A DNA stretch of 64,000 bases from Candidatus Dojkabacteria bacterium (GCA_035444565.1 DAOMOX010000003.1:159488-223487); one strand, 5' to 3'. Positions 17,344 to 43,853 are shown, counted from the first letter of the stretch. The notes: generated from the sequence alone by a model not told the origin. Program-made: numbers and translations.

Positions 17344-20300
17344 TTTAAACTTATCTTTTCAGGAGATTTAATATCGATTGAAGAGATTAATTCTTCGACT
17401 CTCGCTATTGGCTCTAGTTCACTAACGGAAATTGAGACAATTAGTAAATCATCCTCAATTTTAACTTCAGAGCTATCTCTATTGGTGAGGACTAAGTATT
17501 TGTTTTTATAATTTGAATCTTTGGTGATGTGATGGAACCCTGTTAATAAATCTTCTACTTCTACATTGTTTAATTCGAAGCCAGAATTGTTAATAACTCG
17601 AATATCTGGATATTTGTTATAGGAAACTACAACGGTAGGTGTTGGAATTGTTGAGTTTGACTCAACTTGTCCTTGTGATGAGTAATCAAGGAGTGCTGTA
17701 AGTGCTGGTAAGGCTAGAGCAAGACTGATTGACATAGATGCAATTTTCCTAGTACTAATGCCATTTAATGCTAAGTCTATCAAACTGAAAAGTGCATTTA
17801 TACCACCTACAATTGCCATTACACTATTTATTGTAGCCCCAGCAACCTTGTCAAATAAACTTCCAATCCAACCACCAAGTGCAGTAAACGCAGCGCTACT
17901 TACTGTGACAATTATTGCAGATAGAGGCGCTCCAGCTCCCAATGATGCTACTGTTGCACTTCCTGCAATTAATGCCCCTACACCAAATCCAACTGTTGTT
18001 CCAATCGTTGCACCAATCGCTGCTCCAATTCCAGTAATCGGAACACCAAGTGCTGCTAATATTGCTAAACCTGCTACCGAACCTATGGCAGAAAAAATCC
18101 CAGGTAACGCAGCACCTCTGATTGCTAATAGTACTTTGGGAAGAAAAGTGAGATTTGCTGATGCTGCAGCTGGTAATATCCCAGCTAAACTTCTTCCAAC
18201 AAATACCTTAGACATTATCCCCAATAGACTCCTATTTATAGCGCTCATACCTGAGACATAACCCATCATACTTAGATAGTTATTTAACGTTGTGAATTTC
18301 AAAAGAATTGTTTCGAGTAAACTACCTCCACTTTTAAACACGAAGTTATCTTTAAAGAAATCTTTCAGAGCTAGTCCTGGAGATCCACGATGAACATTTG
18401 TAAAATTGTCATACAAATCTTGGATTAGATTTGCCATGACTCTAGTGTTCCCAATTTGAAAGACAAGACGATTAAATGGAAGACCAGATAGTTTGGAGAG
18501 ATAACTACCGTATTTACCTGAAAGCAAGCGTCCTGCGATTGCTTGACCCCGACTTGTTCTAAGGATGTATTTAGCTGATGTAACTAATCCAAAAGTACCA
18601 GCAGTTGCGAGAATAGGATTTATCCCTAGGAAACCAGCTAGTGCTCCAGCTACTAATGCTGTCATAAGTCCAGTCTTAGCAGAGGAAAATAGTCGCGCAC
18701 CAGTACCTCCATATGCATTTCCTCCAGCTTTAGCCAGTTTCGCTGCTGCTTCTGGATTATTCTTTACAATATCGTTGGAAAATACTTTTGTGGTTGGATC
18801 TTTATAAATTGCTGAGCCTTGTTTTTGTAACCATGCAATAGGTCTGATTGGTGTTCGCGGTAATGGTGTATGCATTAAGCTGTCTATGGTTTCTAGTCCT
18901 GCTCCTGCTATTGTGGCACCTGCAAATATCGGCATTAACATACTTGCTGGCACACCTAATGCAGATGCCAAGAACATCGCTCCTCCTCCATACACAGCTC
19001 CTATAGGTGCTTTCTTTAGAAATGTTTTTCCAACGTGTCCAACATCTAATGCAGCGTGATAGGCAGGTTTAATGACTGGAACGAATTTGTTATCTACAAT
19101 TTTGTATACTTTGTCATACTGTGCAAATAGACCATTCTTCATTTCTCCGGGTAGTTTGACAACATTTTTAGCGAGCTTCAAGGTTGAACTCGCGGCTGAT
19201 TGCATTCTTTGTCCTACCGAATTCGTGGAGAAGAAATTCCCCATCCTGGATGCTAATGATGTAGTTTTGAGGACCTTGATACCAGATTTGATAAAGTTGA
19301 CTCCTGAGTCAACAATTTTTTTAACAAGGAATTTAAACACAAGACGCATTATTCCATCAGATTTCTTTGATTTGCGTTTCTGTTCTTTTAAGAAGGTAGA
19401 TTTGTTTGTAACAAATGTCGAAATCTGGTTCCTCTTCATTTTAATACCTTTTCCGAATCGAGACTCCTCTAATTTCTCAGAAAATTTAGAACCAATCCCT
19501 TCATATGCTCTTACAACTTCCTCTTTCAGAGCAATTTTTACGACACCAGGTATATCTTGTCTAAATTGATCTGTGCTTTGTAGACGTGTAAGGTCAATTA
19601 TTCCAGCTTTGAATTGGCCTGATTCAATTTTATTGAAGGCTGTTTCAACTTGCTTTGCGCGAATTAGGTCATTACCTCTAGATAAATAAGGGTCAGTGGC
19701 TATGGCAAGATTGACTTTGGTACTCGCCAAACTTGCTGCAATTCCGCTTTTTGACTCATTTCGTTGAGTGATGTTTTCTTTTACTTTTCCAGACAATCTT
19801 ATGTTTACTTTTGGATCTTCATCAATTTCTCTATCGAGATGTGTAACTTCTTTCTCATCGAGTGAACCTAGGTACTTTGTTTCCAATAGGTCTTCAAGCT
19901 TATCAATCTCTGCTGGATTATATTCACTGAGATTAATTTCACTTACATTTACTCCTGTTAATCCTGTGATGAATTCTTGATATTTGTCAGCTCGGATTCT
20001 CTGGTGTGTATCGTCATACAGATGTTCGAGTGAAGCAAAAAAAGGAACTTCTATGTATTCTGCTGTTTTGGAAGCTTGTAGATTTGTTTTGAAATTACTT
20101 ATAACCTTAACCCTGTCAATATTTTCACGACTATTGGCAAGCTTGTGTTCTTCAATATCGGTATTTTCCACTGCTTCTTCAACAGTCGTTTTTGCCACAT
20201 TAACTTCTTTTTTCTTCAATTCAATGAACGCAGCTCGAGTTGGCTTATACGTGGTGATAACTTTGTATAAAGAGTTGAATGTTTCAGTTAATCCAAGAAT

Positions 20301-20783
20301 TTCTGATTCTTTGCCTGTCAGTTCTTTCTTAATATTTTCATTCCTTCGAGCGTTTTTCTCTTTTATTACGTCGGTTGCAAGTGTGAGATATTCATCATAA
20401 CGAGAGGTGATTTTGCCGTGTAGTTCAGATAATTGTGAGAAATTGTTATATACCACTTCCAGGTCTTTGGGGTCCACATCTGAATCATGAAGTGAATCGA
20501 CAAACTTCTGTGCTCTGTTTAATTTAGTATTTGTACCCTTTACAGTTTTGGCTAAGTCTTCGTTTCTGAATTCACCTGCTTTAGCGTCACCTAAAGCTTT
20601 CATTCGGGCCTCAATTTTTTTAATAGTTTCAATTACATACTTTAAATCCTCTTTATCCTTTTCAGAATAAGCGAAAGCCCTCTGTATTTGTGACAATACA
20701 TAACGTTCTTGTTCTTGAAGTTGTTCTAGCAACTTCTTAAGATCTTCCGGTAAAATATTGTTTTCTGGTATTGCTCCTACCAT
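17340..20783 (-). CDS. Hypothetical 1147-aa bipartite protein. Its N-terminal ~470 aa is a charged coiled coil. Its C-terminal half is Gly/Ala-rich with multiple glycine-zipper-like TM segments. It is the last gene of the six-gene operon.
   Basis: The ORF is long. The N-terminus has K/E-rich heptad-like sequence. The C-terminal segments include AIGSVAGLAILAALGVPITGIGAAIGATIGTTVGFGVGALIAGSATVASLGAGAP. The reverse-strand ORFs 17758..18261, 18565..18807, 19072..19569 and 19984..20400 are antisense artefacts. Confidence 0.7.
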   Translation of the reverse strand: MVGAIPENNILPEDLKKLLEQLQEQERYVLSQIQRAFAYSEKDKEDLKYVIETIKKIEARMKALGDAKAGEFRNEDLAKTVKGTNTKLNRAQKFVDSLHDSDVDPKDLEVVYNNFSQLSELHGKITSRYDEYLTLATDVIKEKNARRNENIKKELTGKESEILGLTETFNSLYKVITTYKPTRAAFIELKKKEVNVAKTTVEEAVENTDIEEHKLANSRENIDRVKVISNFKTNLQASKTAEYIEVPFFASLEHLYDDTHQRIRADKYQEFITGLTGVNVSEINLSEYNPAEIDKLEDLLETKYLGSLDEKEVTHLDREIDEDPKVNIRLSGKVKENITQRNESKSGIAASLASTKVNLAIATDPYLSRGNDLIRAKQVETAFNKIESGQFKAGIIDLTRLQSTDQFRQDIPGVVKIALKEEVVRAYEGIGSKFSEKLEESRFGKGIKMKRNQISTFVTNKSTFLKEQKRKSKKSDGIMRLVFKFLVKKIVDSGVNFIKSGIKVLKTTSLASRMGNFFSTNSVGQRMQSAASSTLKLAKNVVKLPGEMKNGLFAQYDKVYKIVDNKFVPVIKPAYHAALDVGHVGKTFLKKAPIGAVYGGGAMFLASALGVPASMLMPIFAGATIAGAGLETIDSLMHTPLPRTPIRPIAWLQKQGSAIYKDPTTKVFSNDIVKNNPEAAAKLAKAGGNAYGGTGARLFSSAKTGLMTALVAGALAGFLGINPILATAGTFGLVTSAKYILRTSRGQAIAGRLLSGKYGSYLSKLSGLPFNRLVFQIGNTRVMANLIQDLYDNFTNVHRGSPGLALKDFFKDNFVFKSGGSLLETILLKFTTLNNYLSMMGYVSGMSAINRSLLGIMSKVFVGRSLAGILPAAASANLTFLPKVLLAIRGAALPGIFSAIGSVAGLAILAALGVPITGIGAAIGATIGTTVGFGVGALIAGSATVASLGAGAPLSAIIVTVSSAAFTALGGWIGSLFDKVAGATINSVMAIVGGINALFSLIDLALNGISTRKIASMSISLALALPALTALLDYSSQGQVESNSTIPTPTVVVSYNKYPDIRVINNSGFELNNVEVEDLLTGFHHITKDSNYKNKYLVLTNRDSSEVKIEDDLLIVSISVSELEPIARVEELISSIDIKSPEKISLN

Positions 20784-20790: not shown

Positions 20791-21756
20791 TTATAATCTA
20801 CTATTAATTACTTCAATTTGCTCCCTAATTTGTGCAAGTCGTTCATTCAATTCTTTGGCGTCTCCATCACGATTTAAAATCTGTTCTCTTACGATTCGTT
20901 CTTGTTCTCGATGTTCTTGTAATAATTCGAGACCCTGTTCTTTTGTTTCGAATTCTAAATCCAAGTTTTTTCTAATCTTCTGTTCTTGCTGAGTAATTTT
21001 GTATTGCCTATATAAATTTTGCATTTGCATCTTTACTCCCTTTGGAGTCTGATCAAGTGCAGTATTTAGATTCGATACGTAATTAATCAAACGATATGCA
21101 TCCTGTTCGTCTTTATTCCTGAAAACAACCATTTGATTGTCGTCGTTATACCTTGCAATTATATTATTTAGAATTGTTTCTGCCTGTGCAACAGAGATTT
21201 TTGTTTCTTTTATGTATCCTCTTGCCAGAGGTTCTAGCCCTCGTACTTTTGCAATTGGTTTATTGTACATATCAGATTTATAAAACTTGTAAATCTCTTT
21301 CTTCTTTTCATCTACTCTTAACTCTGGCTTAACGGAAACCCTTTCCATTCCGATTCTGGCTCTATCGATCCGTATCCATTTATCCATTAGTTCTTTTAAT
21401 GTTCGAACAGTAGGTCTTTGTTTCTCATAGCTTTCTACAGTAGTAATTCTTTTCCAAGAGGCTGCTTTGATATAGTCTTCTATGACTCTTGAATCTTTCG
21501 AAAGTTGACCCAGACCAACCAGCCTGGTTTCCTGATCGAAAAGCCCTAAATTGATGTATTCATAATATTTATCTCTTAATTGTGTGATTGATTTCACCAA
21601 TTGCTGTCGTAATTGACCAGTACTCATACCTTGGGGCAGAAAGTCAACTGTGATTAGCTTTGTAAAAGGTTCATCACTTTCTAGGAATTTGATCATCTTT
21701 TTAAGTGATACCCCATTTACAGGATACATTTTGTATTTTTCTATCGATTCTGCCAT
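20791..21756 (-). CDS. Hypothetical 321-aa protein with a C-terminal coiled coil. Operon member.
   Basis: It lies 7 nt upstream of the 1147-aa gene and shares a boundary nucleotide with the upstream gene. I recognise no motif. Confidence 0.6.
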   Translation of the reverse strand: MAESIEKYKMYPVNGVSLKKMIKFLESDEPFTKLITVDFLPQGMSTGQLRQQLVKSITQLRDKYYEYINLGLFDQETRLVGLGQLSKDSRVIEDYIKAASWKRITTVESYEKQRPTVRTLKELMDKWIRIDRARIGMERVSVKPELRVDEKKKEIYKFYKSDMYNKPIAKVRGLEPLARGYIKETKISVAQAETILNNIIARYNDDNQMVVFRNKDEQDAYRLINYVSNLNTALDQTPKGVKMQMQNLYRQYKITQQEQKIRKNLDLEFETKEQGLELLQEHREQERIVREQILNRDGDAKELNERLAQIREQIEVINSRL

Positions 21757-22919
21757 TAGTCAGTTAATAGATATTCGTCTAATGTTAAATATGGATTTTC
21801 AATCCCACTCGTAACGATGTTAAATATTAATTTTTTAAAGTCTGTACTAAATCTAATATCGTATAGTTCAGTCGGAATCCTCAAAGTGTCTCCAACATCA
21901 TCATATAGATATAGTTCCACGAGATGATGATATTTTTCGTATAATGTTGATGCGTCTTTGTGATCTATAAATTTAATTTTATAATAATTCTCAGAGACTG
22001 TATAACCTTCTTTGTGGTATAGGATTAATAAATCCACAATATCTTTGACTAAATTGGTTACGATTTTCTTGTCTAATTTGTTCTTTTTAATCATTAGCTC
22101 AACAAATTCGTTTAGCAATGGATCAATGTGATCAAACTTCTTGTAATAACCCTGAGGGTCATTATCAGCTTCTTTCGAGTTGAGTGACTTCACGTTTGTA
22201 ATCGCTTCTACTGGTTTAAATCCTCTATCAATATAATTGTAAACATCTTTGTCGGTACGAATTACTATGGGTTGTAACAATTCTTTAAAAAGTTCTATTA
22301 GCTCGGATTGATTAAAGGAAACTAAGAATACATAATCAGTGATATCAAAAACATGTTTAAGCATTCTGTGAGCCAAATCTAAATAATTACTGTAACTAGA
22401 CATTGTTGCAGCTATTTGGTTAGTCTTTTTTTCAAGTTCTATAGTCGAATCCAAGTCAACGGATCCATTTTCTAATAATTTGATTGCATCGGGTACATAT
22501 ATTTCTAAAAATACCGGAATATCACTAGGTTCCTTCATAAGCTTTGCTAGTTCAGCCTCCTCTTGTGTTAGTATTCTGACTAAAGAGTACTTTGCAAAAT
22601 ATTTCTTTGCTTGAATAAATCGAAGTGTATAGATGTCTTTCTGAATAATTTTAAATTTCTCGAAAGTATCATCCATCTTCAAGTCGATATCTACTCCATT
22701 TTCTTTTAGTAGCGTCGTAGCGGATGAGTTGTATTTTTGAATAAGTGTCAGCTGATCTTTTGTAAGTGGATTTTTAAGTTGGACTTGATAGTTCTGCGTT
22801 GGATCAAGTAAGAAAATGTAATTAAACACCATAGGTGAAATTGATTTGGCGATGTCTCTCTCTATAGCTATGAGAGTATTGTCCTCAACCTTATGATTTA
22901 CGGCATTTGGATTGGTCAT
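21756..22919 (-). CDS. Hypothetical 387-aa soluble protein. Operon member.
   Basis: The ORF is tightly packed in the operon. It has no TM segments and no motif I recognise. Confidence 0.6.
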   Translation of the reverse strand: MTNPNAVNHKVEDNTLIAIERDIAKSISPMVFNYIFLLDPTQNYQVQLKNPLTKDQLTLIQKYNSSATTLLKENGVDIDLKMDDTFEKFKIIQKDIYTLRFIQAKKYFAKYSLVRILTQEEAELAKLMKEPSDIPVFLEIYVPDAIKLLENGSVDLDSTIELEKKTNQIAATMSSYSNYLDLAHRMLKHVFDITDYVFLVSFNQSELIELFKELLQPIVIRTDKDVYNYIDRGFKPVEAITNVKSLNSKEADNDPQGYYKKFDHIDPLLNEFVELMIKKNKLDKKIVTNLVKDIVDLLILYHKEGYTVSENYYKIKFIDHKDASTLYEKYHHLVELYLYDDVGDTLRIPTELYDIRFSTDFKKLIFNIVTSGIENPYLTLDEYLLTD

Positions 22920-22935: not shown

Positions 22936-24540
22936 TTATTTCTTCTTGCCTTTAAAAATAGCGCCCAGTCCACCAAACACCTGTCCAGCAGCTTTGGATG
23001 TAGTTTGTCCAACTTGTCCCATTGTCTGGCTACTGCTTTGTACATTCAAGAAATTATTCACCATATCAGGAATAGTTGGAGTGGCAAGAAAGATAATATA
23101 TATCACTAATGCTTTTGTGATACTTGCTGATGTCGAAATCTGATCTGATGAATATCCCAATAAAGGTGGTGTGAATCTGAATTCTCCAGCATTGGAAATT
23201 CCAAGTGCCTCACTTCTACCTATGATTATCATTAATAGAAAGACAGCATAAACGACAATGAATGTAATACTTGCCGCCGCTAATGGTTTGATCGCATTTA
23301 TTATTGAGCTTTTTGTTTTGGAAGGAATTGCAGCTATAAAGAATAACCATGGTAGAAATATCGGTGATATGGCAAGAGTAACATAGTTTTTCAATAATGC
23401 TAGGAACAATCTAAACGCAGCCATAAATGCAGCAAGTCCTAACACTAAATCCAGCAAAGTATTCCCTACTTCTTGGAAACCTGCATTATTTGCTGCCTCT
23501 TCTCCTAATGGGACAACAGAACCGACAAATTTCAACAAACCTAAATTTCCAACATCAATACCATCTGGAACAATATTGTTAACACATTCCTCGTCTTCAC
23601 CAGTTCCCTCGCATCTAAAAATCTCTGCATTCGAAGTTCCCCATATAGCCCATACACTTACAAATGGGTCATCTGGTTGTAAATAGTAAAGGTCGGGTTT
23701 GTCGGGATCGTCTTTTGAAATATCAAGATTTGTAGTACTGGTCACAAATTCATAACCGGGTGCTGTAGGAGATGTGAGAAGTGTACTTTGCACAACATTA
23801 CTACCTATAAATATGAAGTCTACAAAGAATCCCGCTATAGGATAACTCAGACTTACCAGAACTAATGAAACGATTAAAGAAGGTATCGAATTTATAATAC
23901 TTACAGCAGTTTGACCTCCCAGTGACTGTCTGAAAAGTATTAAAAATGCTAACACAATAACAATCACAACGTAAAACGCGTAAACCATATTCCTAGACCA
24001 TTGCCATAAATCCAGCATCGGAAGTAATAGATTATATCCTAGTCCTGGGAAGTAGAAATTATTGTTCACAGAATTAAAATTATCATCATCAGGATCCTGA
24101 GCGTAAACACTTAGTAATTCTCTATCTTGAGTTCTTTGGTAGAGGTCATATGCCCAGACAATGGAACTACTAGGTGGTGAAACATACAGTGTGTCGATTA
24201 ATGCTCCTGCACCGTCTATAGCGGAAATACTATTAGGTCCTGGCTGGAATAGATAAACTTCTTGTGCCGATTCTGGTTCACAAGGCGCGGAACCGATTAG
24301 ACAATTCGCTGTATCGATTAGCGCTGGTGCGAAACCTAAATCTTTAGCATAAGTGCTGACTCCTGACCCTGCAATAAACAAAACTACAGCGAAGACAAAG
24401 CCAAATGTAAGTAAAACTTTCTTTTTCATATTAGAAAATTTGGGTAGAAACATTTTAATGTATTTAAATCTAAATTTAATACAGTATATGAATTGGGGGA
24501 TAAGATTGCAAACTCTTAGGAGAAGAAATTTAAGTTTCAA
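22936..24540 (-). CDS. Polytopic membrane protein. It has a signal peptide, an N-terminal extracytoplasmic domain, TM clusters flanking a large acidic Cys-containing loop, and a G/Q/T-rich C-terminal tail. Operon member. The true start is probably the internal MKKKVLLTFGF.
   Basis: The signal-like segment is MKKKVLLTFGFVFAVVLFIAGSGVSTYA. Hydrophobic helices include MVYAFYVVIVIVLAFLILF, LIVSLVLVSLSYPIAGFFVDFIFIG, LDLVLGLAAFMAAFRLFLALL, LAISPIFLPWLFFIAAI, ITFIVVYAVFLLMIIIG and ALVIYIIFLATP. Confidence 0.65.
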   Translation of the reverse strand: MKLKFLLLRVCNLIPQFIYCIKFRFKYIKMFLPKFSNMKKKVLLTFGFVFAVVLFIAGSGVSTYAKDLGFAPALIDTANCLIGSAPCEPESAQEVYLFQPGPNSISAIDGAGALIDTLYVSPPSSSIVWAYDLYQRTQDRELLSVYAQDPDDDNFNSVNNNFYFPGLGYNLLLPMLDLWQWSRNMVYAFYVVIVIVLAFLILFRQSLGGQTAVSIINSIPSLIVSLVLVSLSYPIAGFFVDFIFIGSNVVQSTLLTSPTAPGYEFVTSTTNLDISKDDPDKPDLYYLQPDDPFVSVWAIWGTSNAEIFRCEGTGEDEECVNNIVPDGIDVGNLGLLKFVGSVVPLGEEAANNAGFQEVGNTLLDLVLGLAAFMAAFRLFLALLKNYVTLAISPIFLPWLFFIAAIPSKTKSSIINAIKPLAAASITFIVVYAVFLLMIIIGRSEALGISNAGEFRFTPPLLGYSSDQISTSASITKALVIYIIFLATPTIPDMVNNFLNVQSSSQTMGQVGQTTSKAAGQVFGGLGAIFKGKKK

Positions 24541-24943
24541 TATCTAGTTCGGACAATCTTTTTCTATAATTTGTAGTTTTCTCGAGTTCGTCGTTAATTA
24601 ATTTTATTAATTCCTCTCGATTTTTTTTACTCAGAATCATTAACAAAGACTTAATCATGCCTTCAAAGTACTTTTTCATGTGTTCGTTAACTTTCTCCTG
24701 AACCTCAGGGAATTCAGAATATAATTTGATAAATTCATTTATAAGTTCTTGATTGTCATCTATATCGGCAAGAGATTCTATCTTGTCGTCTAGTCCTTTT
24801 CTTTCAAGTTCCAGATTCACTTCTACTTCAAGATATGTAAGAAAAATCTCTATGTACTCTTCTTGCATTTGAGCCCACATACTGTTCGTATAGCCTAGTT
24901 TAGATTTTACAAATTCTGATACTTTTGGGCTTATGAAGAACAT
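24530..24943 (-). CDS. Small acidic hypothetical protein of 137 aa. Operon member. It overlaps the downstream gene by 11 nt.
   Basis: The ORF is E/D/K-rich and predicted helical. It lies 15 nt downstream of the 1822-aa gene. Confidence 0.55.
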   Translation of the reverse strand: MFFISPKVSEFVKSKLGYTNSMWAQMQEEYIEIFLTYLEVEVNLELERKGLDDKIESLADIDDNQELINEFIKLYSEFPEVQEKVNEHMKKYFEGMIKSLLMILSKKNREELIKLINDELEKTTNYRKRLSELDIET

Positions 24944-24958: not shown

Positions 24959-27900
24959 TTATGAAGTAACACTTTTGGCAGTATCTCCTATTACACTTGA
25001 GACGTTCTGAAGTCTATTGTCTGGAACATCAACGTTATCTAGGGCAAGTGCAGACTGTTTGAGTACGTCTTCCGCTCCTTTAACTGCAGCGGCTAATCTG
25101 AGTCGACCTCTTGTGCTATTGAATCTCGGGTTGCTCAATGCTTGTTCAAACGCACTCTCTTGGTTATATAACTCTGCTTCTGATTTAATTGCATTAACTT
25201 TCCTTTTTGACCACAAATCTGCAATTTGAGTAACCTTGTTTGAGATGAAGAAATAGTCAGCGAGTAGTAGTCCGATAGCTGTGGGATTGAGGAATGCTTT
25301 TGACATGATTTGTGCAATTTCAGGATTTACATATCCTCCAAAAATTGAGGCAAGAACACCTGCTGTGACAGTCCATCTTGCGATTTGATCAAATCTAGCG
25401 AAGCCGACCCATTTTTCTTTTTGTTTGCTTGCTTCTGACTTGTATTGAGCTGCGGCTTTTATCATTGTTTGATGGTAGAAGTACAATTCAAGAACCTTTG
25501 TCCTCTCTACTACTACATCTTGGATTGCATTGGTCATTAATCCACTACTATCTGGTAAAGACCTATCATTTTTATTTCCAGGTGTGTGTTGTTTAATTTC
25601 ACCGTAGTTTTGTACTTGTGTTGATTTATTAATACCTTCGAAACTTTTGATTTTCCTCGCTCCAACCCCAGCAGAACTTCTAAGAATTATTGCAGTATCT
25701 ATGTCTTTGAATGTCCGTATGTCTGTGACGTCATTCACTAAATACTGTTTTGTGTGGGGATCTTTTAAATACTTCCCACTTCCATCGGGTCGAAATGTTT
25801 CATTTCTTAATGTTACTGGCAAATCTTCTGGAGATAGCTCTAATAAAGATATACTTTGTTGCGGAGTTAAATGTCTCATTAACGTTACAGGGTCACTATG
25901 GGCCTGTAATTGACTTATTTTTTCTCTCAAATTATCCCTATTAATAATCATCCTTGAGTAGTATTCTCTGATGGCTATTTCTTCCGTTGCTGGAGTAGTT
26001 GCTGTTATAGTAGCTAATTTAGCTTGTGCATTATCTACTTCAAGTTGTGCTGCTTCTATTTCAGTTTTTAAGTTGTCAAATCTCATTTGTAATTGTGCTG
26101 GATCTGTGCGTTGTTTAATCTCTTCTAGGATTTTCCGTTTTGTAAGTTCATCTGTGTCATAGTAACCAGGAATTATCTCAAAAGCCTTTCCTCCAATAGT
26201 CACTATTTCTCGTTCACCACATACACCAGTGGCTGTAGCCTCATACGTCCTAGCAAGTAGATACGCCTGAATATAATCCTTCACATCTTGTAATGGGAGG
26301 TTTTTGCCGTTAATTTTCACAAACCTTCTCTGTTTTTTCCAATCTTCAAGACTTCCTCCAGGTTTGATTGCTTCTACGGCATCTACAGCATCGATTACGT
26401 CTCTTATCGTAAATGTTTTATCATCTTCATGTGCCTTAAGTTGTGCGTCCATAATCGCACTTGAAATTTTATCGAAAGTCCTTCCTTGTTGGATAAAGTC
26501 TTCATCGGTTCCCATCTCCAGTTCTGTTGTATAAACTGATTTGATTCTGAATTGTTTTGTTAAACCTGCCCAGTAGTCAGTCACAGTACCAAGTCGAAGT
26601 TGCATGTCTTTCGGTAGACTTTTTCCGTTTAATGTTTGATTGGGATTGAATGCACCCTTAAGGATATTGTCTATTTCAGCATCTCCATATCCTCTTGCCT
26701 TCAGGCTGGTTCTCATTTTTCCTTTTGAGTTATCTATTTCGGCGAAGAGATTAGCATCGTAATACTTATCAATATCCTCTAATTTAGAATAAACCCCCGG
26801 CTGTCCACCCTCTCCATCAAAATATAAAAGTCCAATTCTATCAGCCGCTAATAAATATGCATGATTCTGTTGTATTTGTGCATGGGAAGTCATTGCTTCA
26901 AGAGTTTCTCTCCAGATAACCTCATATAAGCTTTTCATTTCAAGACCATAGAGATTGTCAATTCCCAATCTTTCTCTCCGGGCTTTATCACTTTCTTTAT
27001 AGAATAACCTAGAACTTTGTAACCTCTTACCAATTTCGGTATATTCCAATCCGAAAGGTAAAAGTCGGTTTCGATTTATCTGTCTAACATCTTTGGTCAG
27101 TCCTAGTTCCGCTAAATCTCTAGGTTTTAATCCTGATTCAGAGAAAAACTTACTTATAATACCTCCGATAATGGGAATTGTTCCAACTACAGGGGTCTCC
27201 ACCTTCTGGAATGAATACCTGACATAATCTTCTTTCGCGAGTAATCCAACGTGTGTTCTCAAATCTACTGCTTCGGATAGATCATATTTATCAGTTGAAA
27301 CTTGTCTTTCAGTACCTATTTCTTCGGTTGTAGGTTTCAGTCCGTCCTCGTTTTGAAGTAGTGAACGATAAATTGAATAAACTCTATTGATTTTGTCATC
27401 AATTTCTTTAAGTCTGTCTTGATATTGTTCATCAGTCCATCCTTCCCTTTCGGCTTGAACTCTTAATCTTCTTACAGCATAGCTTCTGATTTTATTAGTG
27501 TAAATTTTTTCCGTCGTATCACAATACTCACGTGCTGTATGCTCCTTGTCTTCCTTTTTATCTTCTTCTTTATCTTCCTCTTTAACCTCCTCTTTAACCT
27601 CCTCTTTATCTACTTTCGGTGTATACTCTGGTAATTTGAGACCAAGATGTCCGTCCTGATAGATTAGGTCATAGATAAATTCAAGCGTGGATTGAGAACT
27701 TAGTTGATCATATCTAGTTAACCTATTGCTCCATTGAACTATAGTGCTCTTTGTAATTTTGTCTTTATTAGCTGGATTTTCTACTAAATTATTTAAAAGT
27801 CGAATGGTAGCGAGGGATTCGATAGCATTTTCATCTAAGTCTCCCCTATTATTTTTCTTGTTACCTCCTTCTTGAGATTTGTTCTCTATAGTAAATTCAT

Positions 27901-30427
27901 TTTGTTTATATCCTAAACTTGCTAGTGTTAATTTTTCCGCTTGACCTTCCTCTCCTTCTATTCCAGAGAAGTGGTTTTGCATCTGGGTAACTAATTCCTC
28001 AACTTTTTCTGACCTCTTAAATTCATTTTCAGACAATAATTTTTGTTCATTTTTAACCCTATATTCAAGTAAGGCATTTTTCTTAATATTAAAAACACTT
28101 TTTTCACTACTTTTTTCCCACTCTTCTTTACTAATTCCAGTATGTTCAGTAATTATCTCATCTAACCTTTTGTCAGTAATTCTAGCCTGATTCTTATCTT
28201 CTTCGGTTTTCGCTTCCTCAATTTTTCTAAACTCTGCTGATAAAGCATGTGCGAGAGATTTGATAGATTCAAAACGCTTATCAATTTCAGCTTGTCTTTC
28301 GGCATCATGCTTAGAATCTTCCCTTAAAGGTTGGATATGCCTATAGAAAGCGTCAGCAATTTTATATGCAGTAAACTGGTTGTTTTGTTGAATTCTAATT
28401 TTGTTGTATTCTTCTTTTTGTTTATGCTGAACCTCGTGGTTGATTGTCTCTTGTGTGCCAGTATGGTGAAATGTCATTATATAGTTCAAGTCTTTTGATG
28501 CAGCTCCATCTACATACCTTGCAGTACGTGTATGGGCTTCAGTTTTTTCTGTTGACTCTGCCCTATCGTTAAATCTCACTGTAAGTCTTTTCGGGGTTTC
28601 TTCTTCGATTCTCACTTCTTCCCCTAAACTCTCATCGGTTACAACCTTGGATGTTTCCTTTGGAATTACTTCCTCTACAATGGTAAGTTCATAGGTTTTT
28701 AATTGTAACGAGTATAAAAGTAATTCTTCAGAGGCAAATTTCAAACAATAATAGCCTTGTTCAGTACTGAGTTCGACCCTTGTTCGGTCCACTTGCCTGT
28801 CAGAATCACCTTCTTTCCCAAGCAGTAATAAATTATTTATATTTCTAGTAAAGGTGGTGAGTGCTTCTCCTTCCAATGAAGTCCCTGATGTTATGTCAGC
28901 AATAATATCTTTAATTATCGCGTCTTCTTTTTCTCTTGTTAGTATCTCCTGTTCTTCATCAGAAAGTTTTTCGGATACCTCTAAATACTGATCATACATC
29001 CTGGCTTGCTCTTCAATTGTAAGTGATGGTCGCTTTTCTTTAAAGTCCTCTTCTTGACCAGAATCTTCTTTTTTGGGCTCGATTTTTACATAATCTATTC
29101 CCAATTCTGTTTGATTGGTTGCTTTTCTTTGTTGATTAATTTTCTCTATGCCCTTTTTAAAGCCTTCATACTCAGTGATTATAAATCTAGAGGTGTTTTC
29201 ATTCCTTCTCCTAAAGTAATCTTTATATGCTTCCATTTGGTAACGGGCTTCCTGAAGATTTCTTTCAGTAGCACGATCGGCTTTCTCTGGAACAGTCAAT
29301 CTGTATTGCTTAAATAAATCCTCGATTTCTTCTTCGGTTACGATGTCGGTCGGATTAAGAGAAAATGTAAGACCCTCAATAGTTTCGTCTAATAGCTCTT
29401 GTCTAGCTTTTACTGCGGTCATATTGTATGAAAATATTATTTCCTCCAATATGTCTAATTTTTCTTTTGAATCTCTTTGAATATCTTCGTCACTTGGGGG
29501 TTCTTCAATTTCTGGTGCTTCCAGGAGTTCAGCTGATGTTTCTACGGTGATTTTTTCTGAAGCTACAGTCGATTCTCTTATTTCTTTGATATCTTCTTCA
29601 TGAATGTCATCTAAAGTTATCACATTTTTTTCTAGTGCTCTTCTAATATATGAGAATTCTTTTCTTTTGAAAAATTCTTCCATTTGTTTTGGGTCCTCAG
29701 TTCCAGTTAGTTTCCCAAATCTTTCTTTTAACTGATTCAAAGCGGCTGCACTTTTATCCGTATCTTCTGCTATCTCCTCCGTCTCTATCTCTTCAAGCTT
29801 TAATTCTGTTACATTTTCCTCTAATTCCTCATCAAAGCTTTTGGATTCCCCTTCTTTTAATTTCCTTTCTGCAGATCTGGCGAGTGCCCTACCAGCTAAT
29901 TGAACAGATTTAAATTCAACCTCATCTTGTTTTGACTGTGTAGTTTCCTGTGGTGCTGACTCTAATTTGGTTTTTGCTTTTCTAATTGCATCCATTTCTG
30001 TGGATGTCAGGGGTTCGTTTCTATTTAGCTTCTCTTGTGCTGATTTTGCCATTTGTTGCAAACCGCGCAGACCGAGAACGTATGATTGAAGACTTACGGG
30101 TAATTTGTTTCTGTCAGTTCCCTGGATAGTAGATGCGTTCTTTAAAACTAATTTCCCATTGTCATCAATTCGAATATTTGCACCAACTTGGAATTTCTTA
30201 CCTTTGCCATCAACTTTTGCTTTTGTGAGTTTTTCTATACTTTTCGCGACTTTCTCAGACTCCTTCGCAACTTTTTCTAACTCTTTTTTGGTTTTTTCTT
30301 TTGGTTCTTCTTCGATTTCTGGGATTTCTTTAGGTTTTGCATCATCAGGCTGAACGTCAGCATTTGGGTTGCCATACACTATGTCTTTCAATTCTTGAAT
30401 TCTATCCATGTGGGTTATCTTAATCAC
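24959..30427 (-). CDS. Giant 1822-aa hypothetical protein. It is highly charged (E/K-rich) and largely coiled-coil, with a C-terminal pair of hydrophobic helices forming a membrane anchor. It is the first gene of the operon.
   Basis: The ORF runs 5.4 kb uninterrupted. It contains acidic-lysine runs such as EEVKEEVKEEDKEEDKKEDKE. The C-terminal helices are WTVTAGVLASIFGGYV and AIGLLLADYFFIS. It has no nucleotide-binding motif. The reverse-strand ORFs inside it are artefacts. Confidence 0.7.
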   Translation of the reverse strand: MIKITHMDRIQELKDIVYGNPNADVQPDDAKPKEIPEIEEEPKEKTKKELEKVAKESEKVAKSIEKLTKAKVDGKGKKFQVGANIRIDDNGKLVLKNASTIQGTDRNKLPVSLQSYVLGLRGLQQMAKSAQEKLNRNEPLTSTEMDAIRKAKTKLESAPQETTQSKQDEVEFKSVQLAGRALARSAERKLKEGESKSFDEELEENVTELKLEEIETEEIAEDTDKSAAALNQLKERFGKLTGTEDPKQMEEFFKRKEFSYIRRALEKNVITLDDIHEEDIKEIRESTVASEKITVETSAELLEAPEIEEPPSDEDIQRDSKEKLDILEEIIFSYNMTAVKARQELLDETIEGLTFSLNPTDIVTEEEIEDLFKQYRLTVPEKADRATERNLQEARYQMEAYKDYFRRRNENTSRFIITEYEGFKKGIEKINQQRKATNQTELGIDYVKIEPKKEDSGQEEDFKEKRPSLTIEEQARMYDQYLEVSEKLSDEEQEILTREKEDAIIKDIIADITSGTSLEGEALTTFTRNINNLLLLGKEGDSDRQVDRTRVELSTEQGYYCLKFASEELLLYSLQLKTYELTIVEEVIPKETSKVVTDESLGEEVRIEEETPKRLTVRFNDRAESTEKTEAHTRTARYVDGAASKDLNYIMTFHHTGTQETINHEVQHKQKEEYNKIRIQQNNQFTAYKIADAFYRHIQPLREDSKHDAERQAEIDKRFESIKSLAHALSAEFRKIEEAKTEEDKNQARITDKRLDEIITEHTGISKEEWEKSSEKSVFNIKKNALLEYRVKNEQKLLSENEFKRSEKVEELVTQMQNHFSGIEGEEGQAEKLTLASLGYKQNEFTIENKSQEGGNKKNNRGDLDENAIESLATIRLLNNLVENPANKDKITKSTIVQWSNRLTRYDQLSSQSTLEFIYDLIYQDGHLGLKLPEYTPKVDKEEVKEEVKEEDKEEDKKEDKEHTAREYCDTTEKIYTNKIRSYAVRRLRVQAEREGWTDEQYQDRLKEIDDKINRVYSIYRSLLQNEDGLKPTTEEIGTERQVSTDKYDLSEAVDLRTHVGLLAKEDYVRYSFQKVETPVVGTIPIIGGIISKFFSESGLKPRDLAELGLTKDVRQINRNRLLPFGLEYTEIGKRLQSSRLFYKESDKARRERLGIDNLYGLEMKSLYEVIWRETLEAMTSHAQIQQNHAYLLAADRIGLLYFDGEGGQPGVYSKLEDIDKYYDANLFAEIDNSKGKMRTSLKARGYGDAEIDNILKGAFNPNQTLNGKSLPKDMQLRLGTVTDYWAGLTKQFRIKSVYTTELEMGTDEDFIQQGRTFDKISSAIMDAQLKAHEDDKTFTIRDVIDAVDAVEAIKPGGSLEDWKKQRRFVKINGKNLPLQDVKDYIQAYLLARTYEATATGVCGEREIVTIGGKAFEIIPGYYDTDELTKRKILEEIKQRTDPAQLQMRFDNLKTEIEAAQLEVDNAQAKLATITATTPATEEIAIREYYSRMIINRDNLREKISQLQAHSDPVTLMRHLTPQQSISLLELSPEDLPVTLRNETFRPDGSGKYLKDPHTKQYLVNDVTDIRTFKDIDTAIILRSSAGVGARKIKSFEGINKSTQVQNYGEIKQHTPGNKNDRSLPDSSGLMTNAIQDVVVERTKVLELYFYHQTMIKAAAQYKSEASKQKEKWVGFARFDQIARWTVTAGVLASIFGGYVNPEIAQIMSKAFLNPTAIGLLLADYFFISNKVTQIADLWSKRKVNAIKSEAELYNQESAFEQALSNPRFNSTRGRLRLAAAVKGAEDVLKQSALALDNVDVPDNRLQNVSSVIGDTAKSVTS

Positions 30428-30608
30428 CTAATTCTACCACAGAAGTGGTTTTTGGTGTTCTAAAACTAAAAATACACATTTATATCTTAAACTTTATTTA
30501 TATGTATAACAACATTTACGAATTTCGAATTTAACTAATGAACATTCTTGTTTTTTCTTATCAATTTTGCCACACTATAGATGTTACTTTAATTAGTGGT
30601 GAATTTTT

Positions 30609-32276
30609 ATGAATAATCCTGCGAATATTTATAATTCCAGTAATCAACCTAGTGCTGCGAACAATTCACAGGCTATGAATTCTAATTTGCAACAATTAAG
30701 TTCGACACAGGCTGACTACATTAATCAGTTCGTAGGAACCACACCACAATCTAGTTACCCACAAGCTCCAAATATGACGACACAGCCACAGCAACAAATG
30801 AACCCTGTAGCTCAACAACCACAAGTAAATCTTTCAATGAATCAACCTGTAGCTCAAGTCCAACAACAAGTGGCACCAGTACAAAGTTATGGAGGTCAAA
30901 ATTCACCTAATTTATATACAGATCAACTTCAAAATAATCCAAACCCAATTTCGAGTGAACCCATCAGTTCACCGCAACTATCTAATGATTATTTAAATCA
31001 GGAACCTGTTGATAATAGTTTGCTGAATACACCACAGATTCCTCCATACGAAGAATTCTCTGTACCAACCTTAAATGATTCATTACAAAATCAGCCATCT
31101 TCACCTATTGAACCTCAGATAAACTCAACTGAACAATCATTCAACTCTACAAATGTGCCAACTTCACAATTGAACCAATCGTATGGAAACCCTGCAACTC
31201 AGACAAATGTTATGCAACAGCAATACAATCCTGCGATTCCGCAAGATTATACAGCTCCAGCTCAACAAGTAAGTCCATCTACACTTAACACTTTGCCTCA
31301 GAATCCACAAAGTCCCGTCAATGTGGAGCCACAACTTATGGGCGCACAGCAAGTCAATGTAAATCAAGATTATGCAGAAAGATATTCAAACAGCCAATGG
31401 TTACCTACTCCACTTAGTCCTGCGAACCAGATGCAAGCTATGCCTCAAATGAACCAACAACAATACAATCCTGTTTACCAAAACCCTACTACAAACTTAA
31501 CAGTCGATAACGATTTCTCAGATGGAGCGAGTCTCGGAGATGATTCATCACTTTCAACAGGTTTCCTTCCTGCATTTGATGATAATTCAGATGATTCTAT
31601 GCTTCCTGCAACTAACGATGACGATGATGATGTCTTTGGTAATCTTGACGAACCTGATGATGTAATACCTTTTGGTTTTAGTGATTATGATCCTAATGAA
31701 CAAGTAACTGGAAGTCTTGATTCTTTAAGTGGTTTCGAATCGCAAAGTCTAGAGGAGGAAGCAAATCGTATTGATGTCGATTTCTCAGAATCAATGCCAA
31801 CTAATTCACAGAATGTTGGAGTTCTAACACAAGAACCCCAGAGAGCATCCGTGGCACAAATGCCACAAACTATGGTGCCAAATCAAACTGTGTCTGCAGT
31901 TAGTTATGCTGCTCCAGCTCCAACTTCTCAAAATCAAATGGAACCACAGGTTCAACAAGTAGCGATGCCAGTTGATTCTGAATTGTCTCCTACTGCGAGA
32001 TTAAACCAACTACTTGAAGAAGAGGAAAAAGCTGAAAAAGTGATTATGCAAAAACAGAAACAATCTGTAATGAAAGTTGCAAAATCACCTAAAATGGTTG
32101 AGCCAAAATCAAACATCTTCAAACAAACCAATGATGATGTTGCATTCCAAGGTGATATCCGAAATGAACTATCTGCCAAGAAACCCGCAAGTAGATACTT
32201 TATGATTATCAGTTTGATTATAATCATTAGCGTAATTGGCTTCTTGTTAGTACTCTTGGGTTTAACCCTGTTATAA
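30609..32276 (+). CDS. Q/N/P/S/T-rich low-complexity protein of 555 aa with a single C-terminal TM anchor (tail-anchored)
   Basis: The composition is extremely biased, for example QPQQQMNPVAQQPQVNLSMNQPVAQVQQQVAP. There is an acidic stretch DDDDDV. The terminal helix is YFMIISLIIIISVIGFLLVLLGLTLL. Confidence 0.65.
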   Translation: MNNPANIYNSSNQPSAANNSQAMNSNLQQLSSTQADYINQFVGTTPQSSYPQAPNMTTQPQQQMNPVAQQPQVNLSMNQPVAQVQQQVAPVQSYGGQNSPNLYTDQLQNNPNPISSEPISSPQLSNDYLNQEPVDNSLLNTPQIPPYEEFSVPTLNDSLQNQPSSPIEPQINSTEQSFNSTNVPTSQLNQSYGNPATQTNVMQQQYNPAIPQDYTAPAQQVSPSTLNTLPQNPQSPVNVEPQLMGAQQVNVNQDYAERYSNSQWLPTPLSPANQMQAMPQMNQQQYNPVYQNPTTNLTVDNDFSDGASLGDDSSLSTGFLPAFDDNSDDSMLPATNDDDDDVFGNLDEPDDVIPFGFSDYDPNEQVTGSLDSLSGFESQSLEEEANRIDVDFSESMPTNSQNVGVLTQEPQRASVAQMPQTMVPNQTVSAVSYAAPAPTSQNQMEPQVQQVAMPVDSELSPTARLNQLLEEEEKAEKVIMQKQKQSVMKVAKSPKMVEPKSNIFKQTNDDVAFQGDIRNELSAKKPASRYFMIISLIIIISVIGFLLVLLGLTLL

Positions 32277-38621: not shown

Positions 38622-39023
38622 TTGTATCTAATTTTTAATTATTTAGAAATGCCCTATACAAGAAAGATTGTGCAAGAAATTAATACTCTTATTAAATCAG
38701 AAACAAAATCACTAATAATTATTGAGAAAAAACTGAAAATCGAAAAACGCTCACTTCAAAATTCAAAGTACTTATTACTTTTAGTTAAAGCCTCAAAGAA
38801 AAAACAAAACATCACATTCCTTAAAGTCCAAAAACAACTTCTAAATAGAAATCTGCACAAACAGATGATTGTTAGTATTGGTTCACGTGTTCAACTTCTC
38901 TCAACTAAAGTGGGCGAGGTGTTCTTTGTCGATGCTAAAAACTATATAGAACTCATAGGGAAAACTATTGGTGACGCAGTTATGATGAATAACGCCAAGT
39001 TTCTCATTGCTGGTGTTTATTAA
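38622..39023 (+). CDS. Hypothetical small basic protein. The start is probably the internal MPYTRK.
   Basis: The 133-aa ORF has no motif I recognise. Its 3' end overlaps the 3' end of folC on the opposite strand by 20 nt. Confidence 0.4.
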   Translation: MYLIFNYLEMPYTRKIVQEINTLIKSETKSLIIIEKKLKIEKRSLQNSKYLLLLVKASKKKQNITFLKVQKQLLNRNLHKQMIVSIGSRVQLLSTKVGEVFFVDAKNYIELIGKTIGDAVMMNNAKFLIAGVY

Positions 39024-43754: not shown

Positions 43755-43773
43755 AGATACGGTTGAATAATAG

Positions 43774-43801: not shown

Positions 43802-43853
43802 CTTTGTTTATTGATATCGTATAAATTTTGATATTAGTTATTATTAAACCGAT

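Follow-up and report, generated by a model that had tools for sequence, protein, structure and literature searches.

Candidate Phyla Radiation (CPR)/Patescibacteria genomes are small, typically about 1 Mb, and the presence of a very large reading frame on the minus strand of the DNA studied here raises the question of what such a protein is kept for. The window (the whole stretch of DNA that was analysed, 64 kb in length) comes from Candidatus Dojkabacteria, and its genome style fits the reduced genome supposed in an earlier note on this DNA. That note had read the product as a membrane-anchored coiled-coil tether or scaffold.

The giant gene and its eight-gene module

The open reading frame, positions 24959-30427, is single and uninterrupted; neither of the faults named in the earlier note as grounds for rejecting it, a frameshift or a stop, is present. 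Counted from a GTG at 30427 it has 1822 codons. Translation probably begins at the ATG at 30409 (M7), since this is where the homologues all start, AGGTGA is found upstream and the NCBI annotation is of 1816 aa. The frame described before thus stands, with a probable product of 1816 aa instead of 1822 aa. This shorter product is identical to HRP51666.1, a "hypothetical protein" of Candidatus Dojkabacteria. Residue numbers given here follow the 1822-aa frame.

Compared with two orthologues the giant gene has dN/dS values of 0.24 and 0.10, and it is a real gene under purifying selection. Related genomes were found to encode full-length orthologues of 1655-1811 aa, the similar length that the earlier note had proposed to look for. 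Among 1.84 billion representative proteins the family consists of only 8 clusters, and every named member of these comes from Dojkabacteria; as far as these sequence collections reach, the giant is restricted to this lineage. A word-indexed search returned only 5 close relatives, and the distant members surfaced in an exhaustive phmmer search with residues 623-1822. Two profile searches (alignments A4 and A5) behind a word prefilter gave nothing new and missed known members too, and scans of GTDB genomes and of metagenomes yielded one close relative each.

Searches of the giant and five operon partners against Pfam, NCBIfam, PHROGs and PADLOC gave nothing significant, and PDB sequences, searched with phmmer and hmmsearch, yielded either no match or matches at chance level. 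The giant has no Pfam or NCBIfam match to SMC_N or to any ATPase; homology to an SMC, myosin-like or phage tape-measure family, which in the earlier view could have explained its composition, was not found. No internal protein repeats were found in it. The AF2 model of residues 960-1822, built from 5 near-identical alignment rows, was unusable (pLDDT 37), and that of residues 530-1440, built from 8 diverse rows, was partly usable (pLDDT 58). Foldseek found no match in PDB or BFVD (TM below 0.12). Literature searches on DTUPAT2, Dojkabacteria and Patescibacteria with giant proteins brought up nothing on the giant or its module.

The giant belongs to a module of eight genes, which lie in the window as follows:

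15112..17343, plus strand: He_PIG protein, convergent; signal peptide, Ig-like domains, one TM helix and a P/Q/N-rich cytoplasmic tail
17340..20783, minus strand: g1147, the other large protein; its N-terminal ~590 aa are charged and the region after them is hydrophobic and rich in Gly/Ala
20791..21756, minus strand: g321, basic, C-terminus coiled-coil-like; start and g387 stop share 1 nt
21756..22919, minus strand: g387, soluble, of no known family
22936..24453, minus strand: g505; signal peptide, Cys-containing extracytoplasmic segment and about 6 TM helices
24530..24943, minus strand: g137, small and acidic (net -10), free of hydrophobic segments; separated by 15 nt from the giant gene upstream
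24959..30409, minus strand: giant gene, 1816 aa from the probable ATG start (NCBI identity, dN/dS)
30428..30608, no strand: AT-rich divergent intergenic region, presumed promoter region of the giant operon and g555
30609..32276, plus strand: g555, divergent; ~530 aa rich in Q/N/P/S and one strongly hydrophobic helix at the extreme C-terminus

The giant heads the module and is always followed by the same five genes, in the order ~140 aa, ~505-aa polytopic membrane protein, ~390, ~325 and ~1147 aa, and two single-pass membrane proteins bracket the whole. One of these, g555, has a tail-anchor architecture and adjoins the giant in all clades; the other, the He_PIG protein, is conserved at the 3' end of the module. 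The position of g137, whose orthologues have 137-145 aa, does not vary between clades. Orthology between relatives covers all eight genes, and the synteny persists in relatives down to about 23-27% identity. The chromosomal flanks, Obg/PduO/ACS and He_PIG/SBP, are also kept, and the position of the module does not change between genomes that share only about 60% identity in their housekeeping proteins.

Within the module g505 shows the strongest conservation, with 91/66/57% identity across clades; it has no family or PDB match, and its mechanical open reading frame reaches back to a TTG at 24540. When two genomes were compared, identities were 59% for g505, 27% for the giant and 57-67% for housekeeping proteins, so that g505 is conserved at the housekeeping rate and the giant evolves about twice as fast. 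The giant, g137, g321, g387 and g1147 together fall at 26-37% against the same housekeeping values. In g1147 the region 590-1035 contains 27 small-xxx-small-xxx-small motifs.

No NTPase or ATPase is encoded in the module, and Walker A is absent from six partner proteins of the giant. A type IV pilus cluster is situated 14 kb from the module; no other secretion ATPase or recognisable secretion component was found in the module or in the 64-kb window. The region between the giant and g555 has one sigma-70-like match (30603-30574, minus strand), and the promoter and terminator scans gave counts not above those of shuffled sequences.

Conserved blocks, linkers and the HExxH motif

Within the giant the following features were distinguished:

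29828..30295, minus strand: N-terminal conserved Lys-rich region, residues 45-200 (identity to the relative P0005, heptad scan)
28310..28792, minus strand: putative zincin-like module, residues 546-706 (family alignments A4 and A8, AF2 secondary structure, dN/dS)
28424..28438, minus strand: HEVQH, the single HExxH motif, residues 664-668, invariant in the aligned family
27549..27611, minus strand: 12-nt tandem repeat (5.2 copies, TRF) encoding an acidic-lysine run in a variable linker, residues 942-962
26138..27310, minus strand: conserved alpha/beta core, residues 1040-1430 (conservation, dN/dS, AF2)
25748..26110, minus strand: variable coiled-coil-like linker, residues 1440-1560 (low identity, dN/dS, heptad scan)
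24962..25720, minus strand: C-terminal domain, residues 1570-1822 (phmmer, dN/dS)
25223..25384, minus strand: conserved hydrophobic helical hairpin, residues 1682-1735 (alignment A5, hydrophobicity)

As read from the alignments, the giant is a series of conserved blocks (the Lys-rich region, the HExxH module, a helical region, the alpha/beta core and the C-terminal domain) set between fast-evolving, indel-prone charged linkers. Residues 51-200 are 64-80% identical to P0005, a relative of 63% identity, which exceeds the protein average, and a short heptad-like segment lies at residues 43-73. The alpha/beta core and the C-terminal domain are the two best-conserved blocks. The core is 66-90% identical to P0005 (dN/dS 0.05-0.14), and many of its Gly, Pro and charged residues are invariant down to 22% overall identity; AF2 modelled roughly residues 1230-1400 at a pLDDT of 70-89, with no fold match. 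We discarded the idea that 'TAT...ERE' in the core is ADP-ribosyltransferase-like, because the spacing is wrong and relatives do not keep the ExE. The C-terminal domain has the lowest dN/dS in the giant (0.04-0.08) and is the sole part that phmmer recognises in the most distant relatives.

The linker at 1440-1560 is 30-38% identical to P0005, has a dN/dS of 0.27-0.51 and contains a heptad-like segment at 1444-1478. The acidic-lysine run EEVKEEVKEEDKEEDKKEDKE, to which the earlier note had drawn attention, is present at residues 942-962. It is the product of a strain-variable 12-nt repeat in a non-conserved linker: the copy number differs between strains, the repeat is missing in P0004 and P0005, and the P0005 alignment has 17 gaps within residues 901-950 of the giant.

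The earlier statement that the protein has no enzymatic motif does not hold, as HEVQH at 664-668 is invariant across the family down to 22% identity. Each of the 8 full-length members carries exactly one HExxH, at aligned columns, where 0.02-0.055 per protein (0.03 for the giant itself) would be expected by chance; H, E and H are unchanged in 9 aligned sequences of 22-91% identity. These residues make up three of the 95 invariant columns of the whole giant and three of the six within the module. The six are G, L, H, E, H and K, with no further invariant His, Asp or Glu; an acidic residue lies at +8 to +10 from the first His in every member, although not in one strictly aligned column. The order of elements is a G-Y-Y-C/V-L-x-F strand, G-A-A-x-K...(V/I)-Y-L-I, the HExxH helix and F-T-A-x-K. 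Around the motif AF2 predicted six strands and then a 41-residue helix beginning just before HExxH, at a pLDDT of only 40-50. The dN/dS of the module is 0.10.

A Pfam search with whole proteins and with the excised module found no peptidase family, a profile search of PDB with the module gave chance-level matches only (IrrE at E = 2.2), and Foldseek found no match to its low-confidence AF2 model. Aligned by hhalign with E. coli SprT, the motifs coincided at 5% probability, which is no evidence. With the minimal zincins of the MA clan (SprT/Wss1-like, ImmA/IrrE M78) the giant shares the invariant single HExxH opening a predicted long helix after beta-strands, a 'G-x-x-x-x...hydrophobic strand' ahead of the motif and the acidic residue 8-10 positions after the first His. 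It differs from them in that its module has no significant Pfam or PDB zincin similarity and lies in the middle of a protein of 1.8 kaa.

The C-terminal hairpin and a proposed place of the giant in the envelope

The two most hydrophobic segments of the giant, 1682-1700 and 1711-1729, lie inside the last ~140 aa. They form a hairpin with the layout R-W, helix 1 (small-xxx-small, with a zipper-like motif at 1689/1690), (F)LNP and helix 2 (LLA[DN]YF.I.N.LT). The basic flanks, KEKW..AR.....RW before and W[GS]KRK after, and the (F)LNP turn are kept in 9/9 sequences, and the two helices are always the two most hydrophobic segments in family proteins. The family comparison supports the hairpin as the only hydrophobic element of the giant that is conserved family-wide. 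A signal peptide is absent from the giant, and outside the hairpin there is no strong TM helix. The earlier note had placed hydrophobic helices only in the last ~150 aa; this is right for the top two, but a third, moderately hydrophobic segment lies at 1078-1096. We do not count this segment as a TM helix, because of its short length and because it lacks hydrophobicity in the distant family members.

The hydrophobicity of the hairpin is marginal. Its helices have KD19 values of 1.24-1.38 in the giant and crude Hessa sums, on a simple position-independent scale, of +5.0/+6.5, compared with 2.3-3.3 and -1.4 to -5.6 for the genuine TM helices of neighbouring genes. In relatives KD19 reaches 2.0-2.2 and the Hessa sum lies at +0.2 to +3.8. 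The most hydrophobic stretch of the cytosolic CTP synthase has a Hessa sum of +5.8. The hairpin claimed before is conserved and basic-flanked; with such hydrophobicity a classical TM anchor is not established.

Our preferred reading, to which we give somewhat less than even probability, is that the giant has several domains, among them a zincin-like module, and belongs as a membrane-associated subunit to an envelope complex specific to the lineage. It would be a large, mostly cytoplasmic peripheral subunit of the conserved eight-gene cell-envelope module. The bulk of the protein would stay in the cytoplasm, as it has no signal peptide, and the hairpin may dock it at the inner face of the membrane with both ends inside, as both flanks are positively charged. 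Because the hydrophobicity is marginal, the small-xxx-small helices would probably not form an autonomous TM anchor but dock by packing against g505, the glycine-zipper region of g1147, or both. The HExxH module could be a zincin-like metal site, belonging to a metallopeptidase or a metal-dependent hydrolase whose predicted target would be a partner protein or the giant itself, and the charged helical linkers may serve as spacers. With such docking, metal site and spacers the giant would combine the roles of scaffold and enzyme, instead of being a passive coiled-coil tether. A proposed membrane anchor together with a cytoplasmic HExxH module is shared with FtsH, HtpX/M48 and BlaR1/M56; these have strongly hydrophobic N-terminal TM helices and Pfam domains, and FtsH has AAA+, all of which the giant is without.

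We considered two alternatives that take a different view of the hairpin. First, the giant could be a soluble cytoplasmic multi-domain protein whose hairpin has no membrane contact and forms the core of a helical domain for oligomerisation or partner binding. Such a buried core is conceivable because the crude insertion energy of +5.0/+6.5 matches that of the cytosolic control; the conserved polar residues within helix 2 (D/N, N, T) and the low-confidence AF2 model, which has only ordinary helices at the hairpin, also speak for it. On the other side stand the values reached in relatives, ~40 consecutive apolar residues with a central Pro, the clustering of basic residues at both flanks and the co-conservation of the giant with four membrane proteins. 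We regard this alternative as unlikely.

Second, the giant could be an exported, membrane-targeted effector that enters the membrane of a partner cell, Dojkabacteria presumably being episymbionts. The hairpin, bilobed and moderately hydrophobic, would insert there and HExxH would act as a protease, g137 would be a chaperone masking the hairpin, and g505 and g1147 would constitute the export apparatus. Glycine-zipper-rich regions such as that of g1147 occur in pore-forming proteins. The giant, g137, g321, g387 and g1147 evolve fast, as conflict or host-interaction proteins often do, and g137 is small, acidic and adjacent to the giant. The hydrophobicity of the hairpin is intermediate family-wide, too low for confident insertion into the organism's own membrane, and yet the hairpin is strictly conserved; transmembrane effectors of T3SS/T4SS are reported to have TM segments just under the threshold for inner-membrane targeting and to be bound there by chaperones (PMC6110835). 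With chlamydial Inc proteins and T3SS/T4SS effectors such as SseF the giant shares two hydrophobic helices with a very short turn (PMC6110835), a hydrophobicity likewise intermediate and under that of the organism's own TM helices, and a small acidic protein next door. However, its hairpin is C-terminal and it has no sequence similarity to these effectors. Apart from the type IV pilus cluster no secretion ATPase or component, whether of T3SS, T4SS or another export system, was found in the module or the window, and the giant has no recognisable export signal. It is also present in one copy, at a fixed position and with conserved length, whereas typical effector repertoires vary between strains. 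We consider the effector reading unlikely as well, by a shade more than the soluble one.

The module as a whole might be an undescribed ATPase-less envelope apparatus specific to Dojkabacteria. In this conjecture the giant and g1147 would insert marginal, glycine-zipper-type helices beside a channel-like g505. The task of the apparatus could be to form a plaque for cell-cell contact or attachment, in which the He_PIG Ig domains face outwards and the disordered Q/N/P-rich tails inwards; alternatively, it would carry the giant into the membrane of a partner cell, where the giant would act as a metalloprotease effector anchored by its hairpin. We put this forward as a speculation that is rather unlikely to be right.

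Filament, mobile element and significance

In the earlier note the giant was taken for a filamentous coiled-coil protein that serves as a tether or scaffold and has its anchor in the membrane; as a passive component with no enzymatic role it would be comparable to HMW2 or Streptomyces Scy/FilP. Part of this reading stands: the results support a very large, charged, mostly helical protein (56% helix predicted) with a conserved C-terminal hairpin, and low-complexity linkers and four short heptad-like segments are also present. The "extreme" K/E content proved to be raised, short of extreme. K+E amounts to 21% and DEKR to 33.5%, compared with K+E of 6-20% in most other proteins of the window and 16-19% in relatives; it is highest in the first 1000 aa (19-33% per 100-aa window) and falls to 5-18% in the C-terminal 800 aa.

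A long filament was not borne out. The heptad-like pattern is confined to the four segments, of 31-48 aa each and together ~8% of the length, compared with 93% of tropomyosin and 0% of four globular controls in the same scan, a crude home-made one (not Marcoil or DeepCoil) with its threshold at the 99th percentile of shuffles. The longest AF2-predicted helices, from low-confidence models, have 27-44 residues. In addition, by dN/dS the stretches that might form coiled coils are under the weakest constraint in the giant. Conservation is strongest in domains that are not coiled-coil and have unchanging Gly, Pro, His and Glu, and the HExxH motif is invariant. The passive coiled-coil tether is thus largely refuted by periodicity and conservation, and we consider it improbable.

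HMW2 of Mycoplasma pneumoniae is a cytoskeletal coiled-coil protein of about 1800 aa, and the giant resembles it in size, high charge, helical content and small-genome host; the neighbours of the giant have long low-complexity P/Q/N-rich regions, which recall the proline-rich proteins of the Mycoplasma terminal organelle. The giant differs from HMW2 in its ~8% heptad content and its conserved globular domains with HExxH, and no homology was detected.

Large proteins in which a zincin motif is embedded and hydrophobic segments are rich in Gly occur in phages and conjugative elements, and the weak, non-significant BFVD Foldseek matches were mostly long helical phage proteins. Nevertheless, a prophage or conjugative-element remnant, in which the giant and g1147 would be proteins of the polyvalent, internal-virion or tape-measure type, is highly improbable and effectively refuted by synteny, the position between housekeeping genes being identical across genomes with ~60% identity in housekeeping proteins. 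There was also no PHROG match for any of seven proteins, no tblastn match in 50,697 phage or 72,556 plasmid records and none in IMG/VR; BFVD TM-scores were below 0.12, and no integrase, terminase, capsid or ATPase gene is present.

A small genome thus still keeps, under selection and at a fixed position, a 5.4-kb gene in a 13-kb operon (17 kb with the flanking genes), and none of the proteins of this operon resembles anything characterised. Its parts can now be tested: the candidate catalytic site H664/E665/H668, the candidate docking hairpin 1682-1735 and the seven co-conserved partners, the most constrained of which is g505. Should the module turn out to serve neither attachment nor delivery, it joins the lineage-specific orphan operons that are common in CPR genomes. 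Should it serve one of them, it would bear on the question of how these uncultured bacteria of ultra-small size deal with partner cells, and the Candidate Phyla Radiation would have a host-interaction machine of a new kind.

The giant gene, its family and its neighbours

The open reading frame at 24959-30427 on the minus strand is unbroken and comprises 1822 codons counted from the GTG of the ORF listing; residue positions follow this numbering. In all homologues the start is a Met seven codons into the frame (MDRIQELKD...), and the corresponding ATG at 30409 has an AGGTGA 14 nt upstream. The identical 1816-aa product is deposited at NCBI as "hypothetical protein" of Candidatus Dojkabacteria bacterium (HRP51666.1); the protein is uncharacterised and lies outside any described family.

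Only five close relatives (63-96% identity, 1776-1811 aa) emerged from a word-indexed search of 5.8 billion clusters; when residues 623-1822 were compared exhaustively by phmmer with 1.84 billion representative proteins, eight clusters in all were recovered. Two of them (42-45% identity, about 1775 aa) align over most of the length, and five at 29-33% identity are recognised chiefly through the C-terminal ~250 residues (four full-length, 1655-1694 aa, and one 913-aa fragment). All members with a source name come from Candidatus Dojkabacteria, and in GTDB the giant is present in one species genome only. Orthologues of similar length in related genomes, which the earlier note had proposed to look for, thus exist (1655-1811 aa), and the frameshift or stop that it named as a ground for doubt is absent, the length being conserved in the family. 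Pairwise dN/dS is 0.24 against the 89% relative and 0.10 against the 63% relative. The giant is a genuine gene under selection with a very narrow distribution.

The giant heads a compact row of genes read in the same direction, which is bracketed by one further gene on either side.

Genes of the conserved module
24959-30409, minus strand: giant gene
24530-24943, co-directional: g137, small, acidic
22936-24453, co-directional: g505, signal peptide, conserved Cys pair, about six strong TM helices
21756-22919, co-directional: g387, soluble, without known family
20791-21756, co-directional: g321, basic, C-terminus coiled-coil-like
17340-20783, co-directional: g1147, N-terminal half charged, followed by hydrophobic, Gly/Ala-rich sequence containing 27 glycine-zipper-like motifs
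30609-32276, upstream, divergent: g555, ~530 Q/N/P/S-rich residues, then one very hydrophobic C-terminal helix
15112-17343, downstream, convergent: He_PIG protein, signal peptide, Ig-like domains, one TM helix, P/Q/N-rich cytoplasmic tail

From the ATG at 24453, g505 has 505 aa and a typical signal peptide, and its orthologues have 499-508 aa; the mechanical ORF (22936-24540, TTG start, 534 aa) overlaps g137. The hydrophobic region of g1147 (~450 residues, 590-1035), with motifs of the form small-xxx-small-xxx-small, belongs to no known family. In both g555 and the He_PIG protein a single TM helix is joined by a long low-complexity region, rich in Q/N/P and predicted to lie in the cytoplasm; g555 is tail-anchored, and the Ig-like domains of the He_PIG protein are extracellular.

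The C-terminal hairpin

In every family member the two most hydrophobic segments are neighbouring helices close to the C-terminus. Helix 1, which carries a small-xxx-small-xxx-small motif, lies between ...KEKW(V/A)G.AR.....RW and an (F)LNP turn, and helix 2 (LLA[D/N]YF.I.N.LT) is followed by ..W(G/S)KRK... Both flanks are basic, which by the positive-inside rule argues that both ends are cytoplasmic. The hydrophobicity of the hairpin is marginal.

Hydrophobicity of the hairpin helices and of reference stretches
Giant, hairpin helices: KD19 1.24-1.38; crude Hessa sum +5.0 / +6.5
Relatives, hairpin helices: KD19 up to 2.2; crude Hessa sum +0.2 to +3.8
Genuine TM helices of g505 and g555: KD19 2.3-3.3; crude Hessa sum -1.4 to -5.6
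Cytosolic CTP synthase, most hydrophobic stretch: crude Hessa sum +5.8

The C-terminal hairpin described earlier as a membrane element is real, and few parts of the protein are under stronger constraint, but such values do not establish it as a classical transmembrane anchor. It may anchor the protein at the membrane interface or by way of a partner, or it may form the core of a soluble domain. A further hydrophobic stretch in mid-protein (1078-1096) was discarded as a TM helix, since distant relatives show no such hydrophobicity there.

We considered two alternatives at this point. First, the giant could be soluble and the "hairpin" a buried core; the values in the giant do not exceed that of the cytosolic control, but the hairpin is more hydrophobic in the relatives, its flanks are basic and the partners include membrane proteins, so that we regard this as unlikely. 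Second, the giant could be an exported hairpin effector with g137 as its chaperone. Intermediate hairpin hydrophobicity and fast evolution would suit such a protein (PMC6110835), whereas no secretion machinery was found, and we hold this to be improbable as well.

Charge, domain architecture and the HExxH motif

The giant contains 11.7% E, 9.2% K, 6.6% D and 5.9% R (33.5% charged residues, net charge -58). Its K/E content, called extreme in the earlier note, is raised (K+E 21%) but not extreme, as other window proteins have 6-20% and g137 has 27%; more distant family members have 16-19%. Charge is densest in residues 1-1000 (19-33% per 100-aa window, compared with 5-18% in the final 800 residues). 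The acidic-lysine run EEVKEEVKEEDKEEDKKEDKE is indeed present (residues 942-962) and is encoded by a tandem repeat within the gene:

27549-27611: 12-nt unit TCTTCCTCTTTA, 5.2 copies, encoding the KEE(V/D)KEE run

The copy number varies among near-identical strains, and the repeat is an in-frame, slippage-prone length polymorphism. In the relatives P0001 and P0002 the run is one unit shorter and in P0004 and P0005 it is missing; it is therefore a slippage-prone linker and not conserved.

Coiled-coil propensity was assessed by an ad hoc heptad scan, in which 93% of the residues of tropomyosin and 0% of those of four globular window proteins lay above the threshold. In the giant the scan marked just four stretches (43-73, 709-742, 984-1031 and 1444-1478), which make up 8% of the protein. 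Both AF2 models (residues 960-1822 and 530-1440) are helix-rich, with 56% helix in the second, and the longest helices comprise 27-44 residues, which speaks against a long coiled-coil filament. Internal repeats were looked for in the giant and none was found. Along the protein, identity to the 63% relative rises and falls in blocks, being high in residues 51-200, 351-450, 651-700, 1040-1430 and 1570-1822 (80-92% in the last two) and low, with indels, in 701-800, 901-950 and 1451-1550. Regional dN/dS varies in parallel (C-terminal domain 0.04-0.08, core 0.05-0.14, HExxH module 0.10, 1430-1570 linker 0.27-0.51). Rather than forming a coiled-coil rod, the giant consists of multiple domains arranged like beads on a string.

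Its sole HExxH motif, HEVQH at residues 664-668, had been missed when the protein was said to have no enzymatic motif. A single HExxH occupies the corresponding position in each of the full-length family members (HEAGH, HELEH, HEIAH, HEITH, HEISH, HEIVH); 0.02-0.055 occurrences per protein are expected by chance. In a nine-sequence alignment (22-91% identity) H, E and H are invariant and account for 3 of the 95 invariant columns of the whole giant and for 3 of the 6 of the excised module. The motif is certainly functionally constrained. Upstream are a G-Y-Y-C/V-L-x-F strand, G-A-A-x-K...V-Y-L-I and a variable insert; the motif itself, ...HE(I/V)xH(L/K)xx(D/E)(D/E)..., is followed by F-T-A-x-K. 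AF2 predicted six strands and then a 41-residue helix starting just ahead of HExxH, with a pLDDT of 40-50 in this region. These are features expected of a minimal zincin, and the module is a candidate for one. Foldseek searches against PDB and BFVD and a Pfam search of the excised module gave no match, a PDB profile search listed the zincin IrrE at no better than E = 2.2, and an hhalign comparison with SprT brought the motifs into register with a probability of 5%. We infer that the motif may be a zincin catalytic site.

The earlier proposal of a passive coiled-coil tether could draw on the high charge and helical content, but the periodicity, the way in which conservation is distributed and the HExxH motif all oppose it and leave it little probability.

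The module and the remainder of the window

Orthologues of all eight module genes occur in the same order even in relatives whose giant is only 23-27% identical, and g555 and the He_PIG protein are kept with the module in all clades. The flanking housekeeping genes, too, are shared with the relatives: Obg, a PduO-type adenosyltransferase and an ADP-forming acetyl-CoA synthetase at one end of the module, a solute-binding protein at the other. Compared with the most distant genome, housekeeping proteins of the window show 57-67% identity and g505 59%, whereas the giant (27%), g321 (26%), g1147 (33%), g137 (34%) and g387 (37%) diverge fast. The constrained core of the module is therefore the membrane protein g505, its most conserved product yet one without a family match, and evolution is rapid in the soluble or peripheral components. 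The partner proteins all lack a Walker A motif and gave no significant match in Pfam, NCBIfam, PHROG, PADLOC or PDB. The module had no match in phage, plasmid or viral collections and is thus not mobile DNA; a prophage or conjugative-element remnant, suggested by weak structural matches to long helical phage proteins, is very improbable given this and the fixed chromosomal synteny.

Elsewhere, a type IV pilus-like cluster (43317-58758) contains two pilin-like genes (one Pfam N_methyl), a GspE/PulE ATPase and a GspF platform protein. Pilin-like proteins of 381 and 919 aa with N-methylation motifs are fused to Laminin_G_3 and LRR domains, and next comes another giant gene, whose 2319-aa product contains a right-handed beta-helix region. 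Two housekeeping proteins (7152-9077 and 32326-33282) are apparently shortened: alanyl-tRNA synthetase (641 aa) stops at the second additional domain and Obg (318 aa) consists of the Obg fold and the GTPase domain alone. Both fit the pattern of reduced proteins in CPR bacteria. ORFs at 4420-5373, 11264-12490 and 38622-39023 have no Pfam family; those of 317 and 408 aa have one N-terminal TM helix each, and the 124-133-aa ORF, between a P-type ATPase and a Mur-ligase-like gene, is also called in related loci. The only RNA gene detected in the 64 kb is tRNA-Val (GAC; 943-1016, minus strand), and no Rfam riboswitch or other RNA reached the gathering threshold in 1-64000.

The giant family and its module are orphans. 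CPR genomes commonly contain orphan operons, and proteins of this general kind, large, membrane-associated and multi-domain with an HExxH module inside, are not without precedent. The function of the giant is inferred, with weak structural evidence. Tentatively, we favour a large cytoplasmic, membrane-associated subunit of a Dojkabacteria-specific envelope complex, docked by its hairpin and bearing a zincin-like metal site. Charged spacers would link this site and the conserved core domain, and the hairpin would dock with g505 and/or the zipper region of g1147 as its probable partner.
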